From Escherichia coli (GTDB lineage: Bacteria; Pseudomonadota; Gammaproteobacteria; Enterobacterales; Enterobacteriaceae), in NCBI RefSeq assembly GCF_016026235.1, contig NZ_CP065613.1: a stretch of 64,000 bases of DNA, one strand, 5' to 3'. Both the position numbers and the translations under genes were made by a program. The notes beneath the pieces were generated by a model that made no database searches, was not told the origin of the DNA, and saw only the letters and a program-made list of their open reading frames with translations. This document shows, piece by piece, positions 12,015-28,089 of this stretch (positions within the stretch are counted from its first letter, which is position 1; each line of letters starts with the position of its first letter).

Positions 12015-13131
12015 ACCAGCCACGGAGTGTTATATGTCCCGAAAAGACCTTGCCAATGCGATTCGCGCACTCAGTATGGATGCGGTACAAAAAGCCAATT
12101 CTGGTCATCCCGGCGCGCCGATGGGCATGGCTGATATTGCCGAAGTGCTGTGGAACGATTTTCTTAAACATAACCCTACCGACCCAACCTGGTATGATCG
12201 CGACCGCTTTATTCTTTCCAACGGTCACGCGTCGATGCTGCTCTACAGTTTGCTACATCTGACCGGTTACGACCTGCCGCTGGAAGAACTGAAGAACTTC
12301 CGTCAGTTGCATTCGAAAACCCCTGGCCACCCGGAAATCGGCTATACGCCCGGTGTTGAAACCACCACCGGTCCACTTGGACAAGGTTTGGCGAACGCCG
12401 TCGGACTGGCGATAGCAGAGCGTACACTGGCGGCGCAGTTTAACCAGCCGGATCATGAAATTGTCGATCACTTCACCTATGTGTTTATGGGCGACGGCTG
12501 CCTGATGGAAGGTATTTCCCACGAAGTCTGTTCGCTGGCGGGCACGCTGGGACTGGGCAAGCTGATTGGTTTTTACGATCACAACGGTATTTCGATTGAT
12601 GGAGAAACCGAAGGCTGGTTTACCGACGATACGGCAAAACGTTTTGAAGCCTATCACTGGCATGTGATCCATGAAATCGACGGTCACGATCCGCAGGCGG
12701 TGAAGGAAGCGATCCTTGAAGCGCAAAGCGTGAAAGATAAGCCGTCGCTGATTATCTGCCGTACGGTGATTGGCTTTGGTTCGCCGAATAAAGCAGGTAA
12801 GGAAGAGGCGCACGGCGCACCACTGGGGGAAGAAGAAGTGGCGCTGGCACGGCAAAAACTGGGCTGGCACCATCCGCCATTTGAGATCCCTAAAGAGATT
12901 TATCACGCCTGGGATGCCCGCGAAAAAGGCGAAAAAGCGCAGCAGAGCTGGAATGAGAAGTTTGCCGCCTATAAAAAGGCTCATCCGCAACTGGCAGAAG
13001 AGTTTATCCGTCGGATGAGCGGTGGTTTACCGAAGGACTGGGAGAAAACGACTCAGAAATATATCAATGAGTTACAGGCAAATCCGGCGAAAATCGCTAC
13101 CCGTAAGGCTTCGCAAAATACGCTTAACGCT

Positions 13132-13396
13132 GATATGACTTTCCGTGTCAAACCGGAATCTCTAATTTTGACGATTTTCTTTTTAGGTTTAATTCCCTGA
13201 GGGCGACGTAGCAGTAAATCCGACGGTGAATCACGCTGATATTCGCGGGTTGGATACCGCATTACAGAGGTCCGTCATATGAGCCTGCCACTTTCTTACG
13301 TCGCGAATCAGCTTTGTTCCGCCGTCGCCAAGCGCTAACGTGGGTTACTCTTGTACCGGGCTACGTCGCCTTCAGGGAACTGGTTATTCTCATTTT
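13132..13396 (-). ncRNA. Candidate structured non-coding RNA (bridge/seek-type guide RNA) in the 3' non-coding region of the IS110-family element
   Basis: No credible ORF; long-range inverted repeat CCCTGAGGGCGACGTAGC (13195-13212) pairs with GCTACGTCGCCTTCAGGG (13360-13377) at 17 of 18 positions; strand and exact ends not determined. Confidence 0.3.
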
Positions 13397-14524
13397 TTAT
13401 TTGTGACATTGTGGTTGTTGTGCGACAGACATTGCTATTCGGCCCATATCCCAGATAAAACCCGCCAGCTCACGTGCAACAGCAACAATTGTAATATTGA
13501 CATTCTTTCCTTTGGCCTGAAGTTTTCGATACCTCTTACAAAGCCTGAGTTGAGCATCCCATGCTCTGTCAATGACGGGGCGGGGTAAATTTTCCTGCCT
13601 TTTTTGTATTGCCGGACTGATGCGTGCCGGATGACGGTAACTCCACGCTGCCTCGACCAATAGCTTTCTGGCATAGCTGTTTCCGGCTTTGGTAATGCTG
13701 CCCTGATGTCTGCTTCCACCCGATGAATATTCTGATGGCGTGATACCAAACCATGACATCAGTTGTCGTGGATGTTCAAAACGGGTCAGATCACCCAGTT
13801 CAGAAATTAATCCAACCGCAGTAATAAACTGAATCCCTCGCATGGCTTGCAGCGCCTCTACTACCGGATACAGCCTCCATTCGGTAACGGCCTCCTTCAG
13901 GGCGGATTCCAGCCGTTCACATTGTGCCTGCCGGTCTTCTATTGTACGACGGTGTTCGTCAAAAGCTAATTGTCGCCAGGGACTTTCGAATGAGTATTTG
14001 CTGAGCCAGCGTCGGTGTGCAGGGCCCCAATCTGCTCGCCCGACATAATGGACCCCATGAACCAGAAGAAACGATTTCAGACGTTGCCTTGCATGCCGTA
14101 AATCATCGCGGGCAGATGCCCATGCCCGGGCCAAATCCCGGAATGCCTCATCTTCAATGCCGGGTACGTAGACAGCAGAAAGATCTCCTGCACGCAGTGA
14201 ACGCACAAGTCTGATGGCATCACGGCGATCGGTTTTAACCCGCTCCCCCGGTTTTTTCGGGATAAGTGAGGGGGCGCAGACCATGCAGTCAAAACCGGAT
14301 TTCACCAGCCGACGATAAAGTCCATAACCACAGGGCCCCGCTTCATAAACGATACTGACCTGCGATGACTTTGACCTGAGACGTTTACAAAGATTCTGAA
14401 TATCAGTAGGTGATGTGCCAATTTTACCCATCAGTTCAACAGGTTCTGAATTGATAGCATAAGCGACAGTAATCGATTCTTTGTGAACATCTAACCCGAC
14501 GTACAATGTGTTATTGTTGTTCAT
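13397..14524 (-). CDS. IS110-family (DEDD) transposase/recombinase, 375 aa
   Basis: ORF track 13397..14572; start assigned at MNNNNTLYVGLDVHK; RuvC-like acidic motifs (LYVGLDVHK, VYEAGPCGY, KTDRRDA) and a C-terminal GITPSEYSSGGS...SITKAGNSYARK region. Confidence 0.85.
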   Translation of the reverse strand: MNNNNTLYVGLDVHKESITVAYAINSEPVELMGKIGTSPTDIQNLCKRLRSKSSQVSIVYEAGPCGYGLYRRLVKSGFDCMVCAPSLIPKKPGERVKTDRRDAIRLVRSLRAGDLSAVYVPGIEDEAFRDLARAWASARDDLRHARQRLKSFLLVHGVHYVGRADWGPAHRRWLSKYSFESPWRQLAFDEHRRTIEDRQAQCERLESALKEAVTEWRLYPVVEALQAMRGIQFITAVGLISELGDLTRFEHPRQLMSWFGITPSEYSSGGSRHQGSITKAGNSYARKLLVEAAWSYRHPARISPAIQKRQENLPRPVIDRAWDAQLRLCKRYRKLQAKGKNVNITIVAVARELAGFIWDMGRIAMSVAQQPQCHK

Positions 14525-15559
14525 GCTGGCCTCCGTGGTGGAAATACCGGGGTGTAGCAACAGCTCACCCATGCGGCTCTGACAACGATGTTAACCCGCG
14601 TTAAATATCCCACGTTGGCCAGCATCTGTCTCACGGAAAGTCATACTGCCTTACGGGCCGATGCTACCGGAGCTGCTCGGCGGTTCGGCGGATCTGGCTC
14701 CCAGCAACCTGACCATCTGGAAAGGTTCTGTTTCGCTGAAGGAAGATCCGGCGGGCAACTACATTCACTACGGGGTGCGTGAATTTGGCATGACCGCTAT
14801 CGCCAACGGCATTGCGCACCACGGCGGCTTTGTGCCGTATACCGCAACGTTCCTGATGTTTGTTGAATACGCCCGTAACGCCGCGCGGATGGCGGCACTG
14901 ATGAAAGCGCGGCAGATTATGGTTTATACCCACGACTCAATTGGTCTGGGCGAAGATGGTCCGACGCACCAGGCTGTTGAGCAACTGGCCAGCCTGCGCT
15001 TAACGCCAAATTTCAGCACCTGGCGACCGTGCGATCAGGTGGAAGCGGCGGTGGGCTGGAAGCTGGCGGTTGAGCGCCACAACGGACCGACGGCACTGAT
15101 TCTCTCCAGGCAGAATCTGGCCCAGGTGGAACGTACGCCGGATCAGGTTAAAGAGATTGCTCGTGGCGGTTATGTGCTGAAAGACAGCGGCGGTAAGCCA
15201 GATATTATTTTGATTGCCACCGGTTCAGAGATGGAAATCACCCTGCAAGCGGCAGAGAAATTAGCGGGAGAAGGTCGCAATGTTCGCGTAGTTTCCCTGC
15301 CCTCGACCGATATTTTCGACGCCCAGGATGAGGAATATCGGGAGTCGGTGTTGCCTTCTAACGTTGCGGCTCGCGTGGCGGTGGAAGCAGGTATTGCCGA
15401 TTACTGGTACAAGTATGTTGGTCTGAAAGGGGCAATTGTCGGGATGACGGGTTATGGGGAATCTGCTCCGGCGGATAAGCTGTTCCCGTTCTTTGGCTTT
15501 ACCGCCGAGAATATTGTGGCAAAAGCGCATAAGGTGCTGGGAGTGAAAGGTGCCTGATG

Positions 15560-15597: not shown

Positions 15598-16456
<859 letters not shown>

Positions 16457-16481
<25 letters not shown>

Positions 16482-16978
16482 TTCTCCAGCTCCTGGCGCT
16501 TTTTTTCCAGGAGATGCTCCTGCATGGCTTTCAGATATGCATTTTCTGCGCGAAGATAACGCAGCTCATTCTTCATCTCTTCCGGCGTCATGTTTCCCTC
16601 GTTTTCATGGGTATCATTAGAACGGGTCATGCTTTTCTCCTTCCTGCGCCTGATAAAGGCCTCATTACCAGATTTGCGGTAGCCTTTTATCCAGTTTTTA
16701 ACCATGTTGTGGCTGGGAATGTTAAACCGGGCAGCTACCCGGGGTAGAGACTCAGAATGCCCGAGAGCATAAAGAACCACGCAAAGTTTATCTTCAGGAG
16801 AATAGCTACGCTTGTGTCTGCAATCCAGTGCCTGAGGACCGTGAAGAAGAAAAAGATTAATCCAGTGTGAGAGGCTGGTGTGAGAAAGTTGAAAGAGTTT
16901 TGCCGTAGAAATGATGCCTGCATGACCGGCCAGGTAATGATTTACAGCGGCAAGTTTTACTTCAAATGAATGTTTCAT
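16457..16978 (-). CDS. insJ: IS150 OrfA (InsJ), helix-turn-helix DNA-binding protein
   Basis: 173 aa starting MKHSFEVKLAAVNHYLAGHAG; leucine-zipper-like C-terminus. Confidence 0.88.
16499..16505 (-). other. Probable programmed -1 ribosomal frameshift heptamer A-AAA-AAG in the IS150 orfA/orfB overlap
   Basis: Reverse-strand CTG GAA AAA AAG CGC near the end of orfA, with orfB open in the -1 frame. Confidence 0.55.
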
Positions 16979-17029
16979 AAACTGCACCTTCAGATGTCAG
17001 ATTATGTCCAACATTTGGGGTGCAGTTCA

Positions 17030-26961: not shown

Positions 26962-28089
26962 ATGTCGTGCCCGGTTATTGAGCTGACACAACAGCTTATT
27001 CGCCGCCCTTCCCTGAGTCCTGATGACGCAGGATGCCAGGCTTTGTTGATTGAACGTTTGCAGGCGATCGGTTTTACCGTTGAACGCATGGATTTTGCCG
27101 ATACGCAGAATTTTTGGGCATGGCGTGGGCAAGGTGAAACGTTGGCCTTTGCCGGGCATACCGACGTGGTGCCGCCTGGCGACGCCGACCGTTGGATCAA
27201 TCCGCCGTTTGAACCGACCATTCGTGATGGCATGTTATTCGGGCGCGGTGCGGCAGATATGAAAGGCTCGCTGGCGGCGATGGTGGTAGCGGCAGAACGC
27301 TTTGTCGCACAACATCCCAACCATACGGGGCGACTGGCATTTCTGATCACCTCTGATGAAGAAGCCAGTGCACACAACGGTACGGTAAAAGTCGTCGAAG
27401 CGTTAATGGCACGTAATGAGCGTCTCGATTACTGCCTGGTCGGCGAACCGTCGAGTATCGAAGTGGTAGGTGATGTGGTGAAAAATGGTCGTCGCGGATC
27501 GTTAACCTGCAACCTCACCATTCATGGCGTTCAGGGGCATGTTGCCTACCCGCATCTGGCTGACAATCCGGTACATCGCGCAGCACCTTTCCTTAATGAA
27601 TTAGTGGCTATTGAGTGGGATCAGGGCAATGAATTTTTCCCGGCGACCAGTATGCAGATTGCTAATATTCAGGCGGGAACGGGCAGTAACAATGTTATTC
27701 CGGGTGAACTGTTTGTGCAGTTTAACTTCCGCTTCAGCACCGAACTGACTGATGAGATGATCAAAGCGCAGGTGCTTGCCCTGCTTGAAAAACATCAACT
27801 GCGCTATACGGTGGATTGGTGGCTTTCCGGGCAGCCATTTTTGACCGCGCGCGGTAAACTGGTGGATGCGGTCGTTAACGCGGTTGAGCACTATAATGAA
27901 ATTAAACCGCAGCTACTGGCCACAGGCGGAACGTCCGACGGGCGCTTTATTGCTCGCATGGGGGCGCAGGTGGTGGAACTCGGGCCGGTCAATGCCACTA
28001 TTCATAAAATTAATGAATGTGTGAACGCTGCCGACCTGCAGCTACTTGCCCGTATGTATCAACGTATCATGGAACAGCTCGTCGCGTGA
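26962..28089 (+). CDS. dapE: Succinyl-diaminopimelate desuccinylase DapE
   Basis: 375-aa ORF, M20 peptidase family ([16 protein letters not shown] motifs). Confidence 0.92.

Follow-up and report, generated by a model that had tools for sequence, protein, structure and literature searches.

An ISSso6 copy in Escherichia coli tktB lies at a site matched by both guide segments of a predicted bridge RNA

We analysed a 64,000-nucleotide (nt) stretch of Escherichia coli DNA (RefSeq assembly GCF_016026235.1, contig NZ_CP065613.1; hereafter the window), in which the transketolase gene tktB is split by an insertion sequence (IS) of 1520 bp. This IS is ISSso6, a member of the IS110 family with IS1111-type architecture, and we hold it very probable that it entered tktB by RNA-guided, scarless insertion into a site matching its guides. 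The element is known and the mechanism, based on a bridge RNA or seekRNA, is published; the event is real but ordinary, and nothing is changed for the family. Our additions are small: the CT core, a map of the guides, the IS66-end target and the apparently deep-branching position of the protein. The insertion and the two gene fragments have the following coordinates in the window:

13132..14651, minus strand (transposase sense): ISSso6, boundaries ambiguous by 2 bp (= 13130-14649)
12034..13131, plus strand: tktB 5' fragment, N-terminal transketolase part, codons 1-366 (MSRKDL...ASQNTLNA), downstream of talA
14652..15557, plus strand: tktB 3' fragment, codons 367-667 and stop (301 codons + stop)
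13130..13131, plus strand: CT core dinucleotide as present in the flank; its counterpart at 14650-14651 lies within the element as drawn

Compared with intact E. coli tktB, both fragments are in frame and exactly contiguous, and their 366 and 301 codons add up to the 667-aa protein annotated in this species; over the 300 bp adjoining the junction, the 5' fragment shows 100% identity with transketolase genes annotated in E. coli. At the left junction, positions 13123-13131 read ...CTTAACGCT and are followed by the element start GATATGACTTTCCGTG..., whereas at the right junction the element ends in ...CACGGAAAGTCATACTGCCT at 14651 and is followed by TACGGGCCG.... The intact tktB of E. coli 14EC033 reads CTTAACGCTTACGGGCCG, i.e., ...CTTAACGCT^TACGGGCCG... 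(here and below, a caret marks the point of insertion). Because this empty site equals the joined flanks, 1520 bp were inserted and target bases were neither lost nor gained. The empty-site comparison thus upholds both the split into 366 and 301 contiguous codons and the seamless, duplication-free insertion described in an initial annotation of this DNA, and insertion without target-site duplication is what characterizes the IS110 family. The same annotation saw one ambiguous T at the boundary, which has to be corrected: the ambiguity comprises the two base pairs CT, common to target and element, and since they stand at both 13130-13131 and 14650-14651, the insert can equally be placed at 13130-14649 or 13131-14650. 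CT has been described as the core dinucleotide of IS621 as well (PMC11208160).

ISSso6 is multicopy, and repeats commonly cause misassembly; the insert could in principle be an assembly chimera, a repeat collapsed or misplaced within an intact tktB, which the initial annotation had named as a refuting outcome. We consider this ruled out for practical purposes, because the independent assembly L007 (GCA_031665325.1) has the same junctions and an identical 1520-bp element. The junctions are moreover base-perfect and restore tktB exactly, and both RNA guides described below are matched at 12/12 positions, which a random misjoin would not produce; overall, a chimera is extremely improbable. The recurrence of the junction in L007 suggests a lineage marker; it was found in 0/5426 complete E. 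coli genomes searched. TktB, the minor transketolase, should be inactivated by the insertion, since its N-terminal 366 residues are cut off from the remaining 301. For the genome, this would be one more IS-mediated pseudogene in an IS-rich chromosome of the Shigella/enteroinvasive E. coli (EIEC) type, its IS content and published work indicating Shigella sonnei or a near EIEC relative; a search of the available literature library on tktB pseudogenes in Shigella found nothing relevant.

The initial annotation had left open which named IS this is. Full-length 1520-bp copies that are 100% identical were found by megablast in E. coli and EIEC chromosomes and large plasmids, most from human stool isolates and in up to 16 places per genome, and all of them are annotated in RefSeq as "IS110-like element ISSso6 family transposase". 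Siddiquee et al. 2024 (PMC11187229) print 103 residues of ISSso6, derived from ISfinder, in their source data, and over this length the 375-aa protein agrees with them throughout; the identical coding sequence is annotated in RefSeq as WP_001063816.1. We therefore name the element ISSso6, which also appears in the catalogue of 12 ISs for S. sonnei 53G (PMC7373316). It does not differ from ISSso6 of ISfinder, and only its location is particular. The segment is a complete copy that is probably still active. A second copy in the window was considered for a 375-aa open reading frame at 26962-28089, which by its translation is a DapE-type desuccinylase, so that the equal length is coincidental; self-BLAST of the 64-kb window revealed no IS-sized repeats.

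The coding part and the ends of the element are laid out as follows:

13397..14524, minus strand: transposase/recombinase gene, 375 aa, with a GGAGG ribosome-binding site ahead and matches in Pfam and NCBIfam
14632..14645: subterminal inverted repeat of the left (transposase-proximal) end, set in by 7 nt when counted as 13 bp
13134..13147: subterminal inverted repeat of the right end, set in by 3 nt when counted as 13 bp

The transposase matches PF01548 (DEDD_Tnp_IS110, the N-terminal DEDD/RuvC-like domain; E 6.7e-11) and PF02371 (the C-terminal domain; E 1.6e-23) in Pfam, and NCBIfam NF033542 ("IS110 family RNA-guided transposase") with 273.9 bits against a cut-off of 140. The DEDD-type, IS110-family assignment of the initial annotation is confirmed by these matches, none of which points to another protein family. 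Residues D12, E61, D99 and D102 and the motif GITPSEYSSG (G--P----SG in the family; G260...S267-S268-G269) are invariant in 15 homologues of 72-95% identity, and by position and motif these four residues and the SG motif are the likely catalytic residues.

For comparison we collected relatives by a genome-wide search with the homologue alignment, which yielded 80 loci; 38 of these share the end motifs AGnCAGTATGAC...GTCATATC with ISSso6. Burkholderiaceae are the main source of the 38, besides several metagenome-assembled genomes (MAGs), and protein identity ranges from 47 to 81%; their ends were set by anchoring on the end motifs, which replaced an automated inverted-repeat search that returned many spurious repeats. 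The 14-bp repeats of our copy are perfect, as the initial annotation had reported for 13134-13147 and 14632-14645, and they are unique: these are the sole two matches in the window at up to one mismatch, and 0/100 shuffles gave two matches. In transposase orientation the element starts with AGGCAG-TATGACTTTCCGTG and ends with CACGGAAAGTCATA-TC. Across the 38 relatives the same layout is kept, and the subterminal repeat covaries between both ends. Elements of the IS1111 type have inverted repeats of about 7-17 bp that are set in by 7 nt on the left and 3 nt on the right (PMC11187229, PMC11208160), just as in ISSso6, and carry their longer non-coding region and guide RNA downstream of the gene; in ISSso6, 127 nt lie 5' of the transposase gene versus 265 nt 3' of it. 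The architecture of ISSso6 is thus of the IS1111 type. From a protein of about 375 aa and a long 3' non-coding region, the initial annotation had preferred an IS1111-like over an IS621-like element; this preference holds, given the subterminal repeats, the long 3' non-coding region and the best reference protein, IS1533.

The protein sequence places ISSso6 less centrally. Among 7 reference transposases, taken from the FASTA file of PMC11187229, the closest is that of IS1533 (33% identity over 343 aa, full length, E 6.5e-48), called an IS1111-family member in that paper, whereas IS621, IS110 and IS4321 align only at the C-terminal ~95-110 residues (96 aa for IS4321). Distant C-terminal similarity extends to the solved recombinases of IS621 (~90 residues, E 2e-05) and ISCro4. 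The IS1111-type seekRNA elements (ISEc11, ISPa11, ISKpn4; PMC11187229) have transposases of 330-350 aa, against 375 aa in ISSso6, and the identity matrix of the same paper gives only 17-25% between ISSso6 and 49 core IS1111 members. On such pairwise identities, the ISSso6 protein lies outside the tight core IS1111 cluster, in what looks like a deep branch. This low identity would suit an IS110-group (IS621-like) element whose guide RNA is encoded in the left end, ahead of the transposase gene, and so would the protein length, which is within the size range given for some IS110 subgroups (PMC11187229). Such an assignment is nevertheless improbable: the left non-coding end measures only 127 nt, while the right 265 nt hold a covarying structured RNA; the 13-14-bp subterminal repeats stand 7 and 3 nt from the ends; the guides come in the order of IS1111 types, top strand before bottom strand; and the best reference protein belongs to the IS1111 family.

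The 3' non-coding region encodes a structured RNA, which we read as a bridge RNA, with these parts:

13190..13382, minus strand: structured non-coding RNA (bridge RNA or long seekRNA) of the 3' non-coding region, ~193 nt, with an outer stem of 21 bp that closes it
13282..13349, minus strand: first internal-loop domain, target-binding loop (equivalent of the short seekRNA, 68 nt); helices in columns 36-38/110-112, 42-45/102-105 and 57-61/81-87 enclose variable segments
13222..13276, minus strand: second internal-loop domain, candidate donor-binding loop; helices in columns 118-121/170-173 and 134-137/146-149

As a single sequence, the 265-nt region folds to -88 kcal/mol versus -66 kcal/mol in shuffles (z = -4.64). 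An RNAalifold consensus of 35 relatives comprises 46 pairs, forming the 21-bp outer stem and two internal-loop domains. We observed standard pairs in 97.2% of the cells, as compared to 34-44% when the partners were slid by 1-3 columns, and compensatory changes in 29/46 pairs against 10-12 in the slid controls; 0/500 shuffles reached the observed values. The RNA structure is thus well supported by covariation. The assignment of the second loop to donor binding follows the model of IS621 and is a tentative one.

Outside two short hypervariable segments, one for each strand of the first internal loop, the 3' regions of the relatives align well. In ISSso6 these segments are:

13331..13338, minus strand: guide segment 1, RNA 5'-UUAGCGCU-3', complementary to the right flank plus core, AGCGTTAA, on the top strand in transposase orientation
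13295..13300, minus strand: guide segment 2, RNA 5'-CGUAAG-3', equal to the top strand of the left flank plus core (CGTA-AG)

Segment 1 forms 8/8 pairs at the tktB site, one of them G.T. Segment 2 agrees at 6/6 positions and, being identical to the top strand, would pair with the bottom strand. The tktB site is thus paired at all 12 bp, one strand contributing CGTA-AG and the other AG-CGTTAA; a single pair is a G.T wobble. The same correspondence is evident when each relative is compared with its own insertion site. Segment 1 is the reverse complement of the element's own right flank, e.g., CCACGCU with AGCGTGG, AGAUACU with AGTATCT, UGGUAUU with AATACCA and CUCCUGUU with AACAGGAG, and segment 2 repeats the own left flank plus AG; by eye, we counted at least 12 distinct guide/target combinations. 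Excluding the core, segment 1 pairs with its own flank at 4.52 of 6 positions on average in 25 relatives, against 2.6 for mismatched partners, and segment 2 fits its own flank at 3.26 of 5 positions in 27 relatives, against 2.11; in both cases 0/10000 permutations were as high, in a test that ignores relatedness among the elements. Systems guided by a bridge RNA or seekRNA have a structured RNA whose loop segments change together with the flanks of the target on both strands, and ISSso6 shows this feature. In IS1111-type seekRNAs the match to the top strand comes first, 5' of the one to the bottom strand (PMC11187229), an order that ISSso6 shares (segment 1 before segment 2) if the strand convention of that paper is the transposase orientation. 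The guides also fit the target loop of IS621, where the LTG and RTG guides address opposite strands and the core is within both pairings (PMC11208160).

The covariation between guide and flank bears directly on another explanation, namely that the protein alone reads GTAAGCG and that the 3' RNA structure serves, for example, mRNA stability or antisense control. The core target is indeed short and conserved, and the link between RNA and protein in ISSso6 is a comparative one. However, relatives with 72-81% identical proteins use quite different sites, with both loop segments changing to match, and dependence on seekRNA or bridge RNA has been demonstrated experimentally in other family members (PMC11187229, PMC11208160), among them ISEc11 and ISEc21, for which RNPs were purified and transposition was assayed. 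We therefore regard direct read-out by the protein as very improbable.

Several individual relatives illustrate the behavior of the guides. In L032 (Paraburkholderia MAG) and L018 (Cupriavidus), the last two bases of guide segment 1 are CC, not CU. The right flank of L032 starts with GG instead of AG, so that the core appears to covary with the guide here, and the contig of L018 carries no right flank. L052 (Paraburkholderia humisilvae) has intact ends and an intact transposase gene, but in its non-coding region of 238 nt the entire target-binding (first) loop is missing; this copy may have no guides of its own and rely on RNA supplied in trans. Eight distant relatives of 48-65% identity (L059, L063-L065, L071, L078, L079 and L083, from Rokubacteria, Acidobacteria and other MAGs) are all inserted at T^AACGC..., and in many cases ...GGTTCAGC or ...GGTCAGC comes next, which suggests a common repeated target in their genomes.

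To define the usual target of ISSso6 itself, we combined 10 places from one protein look-up with 10 RefSeq loci, giving 18 distinct junction pairs. In transposase orientation, the bases left of the insertion point are G (16 of 18), T (18) and A (18), and those to the right A (17), G (18), C (16) and G (17), then T or C, n, A, A. The usual target is accordingly GTA^AGCG(T/C)nAA, and the core AG, which is CT on the window plus strand, is present at 17/18 unique junctions. Left flanks vary beyond GTA, while the right flank is often AGCGTCAACGGAGCACCGTATTGAC or AGCGTACAGCCTGAACCG, adjoining IS66-family genes. The terminal inverted repeats of the IS66 family begin with GTAAGCG (PMC11946415), as in the example GTAAGCGTCCGG..., and several ISSso6 copies adjoin annotated IS66-family genes; from these sequences we conclude that ISSso6 normally inserts three bases within IS66-family ends. 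This agrees with a report on S. sonnei, in which the majority of ISSso6 copies were "connected" to other ISs (bioRxiv 10.64898/2026.03.18.712784). The tktB site, CCCGTA^AGCGTTAAGCG in codons 365-369, contains CGTA-AG-CGTTAA, and the two target types read GTAAGCGTTAA (tktB) and GTAAGCGTCAACGG (IS66 repeat). Since IS66 repeats start with GTAAGCG and several copies adjoin IS66-family genes, the tktB site looks like a chance chromosomal look-alike of the IS66-repeat target; within the 64-kb window, GTAAGCGYNAA does not occur anywhere else.

Other ISSso6 copies show a variety of surroundings. Several of those at loci L003-L012 and L093-L101 interrupt or adjoin IS66-family, IS1, IS3 and plasmid genes (one setting being beside traI on a 155-kb plasmid), and in E. 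coli O121 a SopA-family pseudogene is split by a copy with a frameshift. In GCA_031665325.1, two loci (L008, 2394-2598; L009, 2394-2554) have a full copy followed directly by a second, identical 3' fragment, corresponding to IS positions 1316-1520 and 1360-1520, respectively. The breakpoints, cacgtt^AGCGCT and gtaagaa^AGTGG, lie beside the DNA encoding the two guide segments. As the guide-coding DNA mimics the target, these tandem fragments may record self-insertion followed by deletion.

On the donor side, the following features are candidates:

13236..13242, minus strand: AUAUCAG, 3' strand of loop 2, candidate right-end donor guide, equal to the right-end tip ATATC plus core AG
13146..13151, minus strand: TTGACA, candidate -35 box at the right end, 14 nt from the end
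14643..14648, minus strand: CAGTAT, candidate -10 box at the left end; pattern CAnnAT from left-end position 4 in all relatives

We propose the following course of events. The DEDD recombinase would use an RNA that originates in the 265 nt downstream of its gene, production and binding of this RNA being presumed. UUAGCGCU would pair with one target strand to the right of the crossover and CGUAAG with the other strand to the left, both covering the 2-bp core, and the RNA may also take part in recognizing the donor ends. The element would excise as a circle, whose junction ...GTCATATC^AGGCAGTATGAC... would put TTGACA from the right end 17 bp from CAGTAT of the left end. TTGACA is found in 33/38 relatives and TTGACT in the other five; the distance of 14 nt from the end is one nt greater in six distant ones. 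The two boxes would make up a junction promoter assembled only on the circle; such promoters are documented for ISEc11 and ISEc21 (PMC11187229). The circle would then recombine into a DNA site matching the guides, no base being duplicated or lost, and codons 365-369 of tktB, which happen to match both guides in full, would have been used as such a site.

A number of points weigh against this reading. A scan of positions 12800-15000 with Rfam 15, at E values up to 1, found no family, and a promoter search of the integrated copy gave matches no better than chance, both for the RNA and for the transposase gene. AUAUCAG is nearly invariant in the relatives, as is the end itself. No convincing guide for the left (transposase-proximal) donor end was found in loop 2. 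The left-side target guide is short (3-4 nt plus core) and imperfect in many natural copies, the permutation tests have the limit given with them, and the mechanism as proposed for ISSso6 is drawn from comparison. As for individual left-end candidates, ACUGCCU, the guide expected in loop 2, is absent; CUGU, which could pair with GCAG, does not covary with left-end position 3 (G/T/A) in the relatives; and GGCAGGCUC, which resembles the left end, is invariant and located in helices.

ISSso6 shares several features with IS621, as described by Durrant et al. 2024 (PMC11208160) and in structure 8WT6 and related entries: a DEDD recombinase with a C-terminal Ser-Gly domain, a structured RNA of ~190 nt with two internal loops, and left and right guides on opposite strands, both over the 2-bp core. 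If the core is read as CT, on the window plus strand, the RNA-coding end of ISSso6 would adjoin the left target, as it does in IS621; in that frame RNA and gene of ISSso6 would be transcribed on the opposite strand, whereas those of IS621 run with it. The two elements further differ in the location of the RNA (3' of the gene in the right end in ISSso6, 5' in the left end in IS621), in the subterminal repeats (13-14 bp versus 2-3 bp) and in that one candidate donor guide is proposed for ISSso6. The IS1111-type seekRNA elements listed above target REP, attC or Tn21 repeats, in contrast to GTA^AGCG, the start of IS66-type repeats, in ISSso6. A programmed target in another mobile element is shared with IS4321/IS5075 (IS1111 family; terminal repeats of the Tn21 family) and ISEc21 (DDE codons of IS3 elements). 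Their prey elements and guides are different, however, and in the tktB case of ISSso6 an off-prey chromosomal look-alike was used too. The latter is a clean natural example of an insertion that we take to be RNA-guided, at an off-prey site with both guides perfectly matched. The guide map could help to predict ISSso6 hot spots in Shigella genomics, or be a start for reprogramming an enzyme active in Enterobacteriaceae.

Taken jointly, the protein and donor-side results would allow a further reading, which we think doubtful. ISSso6 and its relatives might form a distinct, deep-branching IS1111-like lineage (375 aa, IS1533-related, abundant in Burkholderiaceae, present in Shigella and EIEC), in which the RNA gives the target guides and one donor guide, the protein reads the other donor end via the long subterminal repeat, and the natural prey is the GTAAGCG start of IS66-family elements. 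If true, such a one-donor-guide lineage would represent a mechanistic variant of bridge-RNA recombination and offer a ready-made programmable enzyme from an enteric host.

In the surroundings of the insertion, tktB lies between talA and ypfG, with maeB upstream, and is intact in a close E. coli relative. An IS3-family element is located between the tktB stop codon and ypfG (15630-16987, minus strand; orfA 16457-16987, orfB 15630-16352; NF033516, 294.8 bits); by its annotation, E. coli FDAARGOS_943 carries this element in the corresponding position next to an uninterrupted tktB. At the beginning of the window, two 83-bp direct repeats (540-622 and 640-722) are 97.6% identical and built of GCGGATGCGGCGTGAACGCCTTATCCGCCCTAC...GCCGGATAAGACGCGGCAAGCGTCGCATCCGGCA; they look like ordinary E. 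coli extragenic palindromes of the REP/BIME type.

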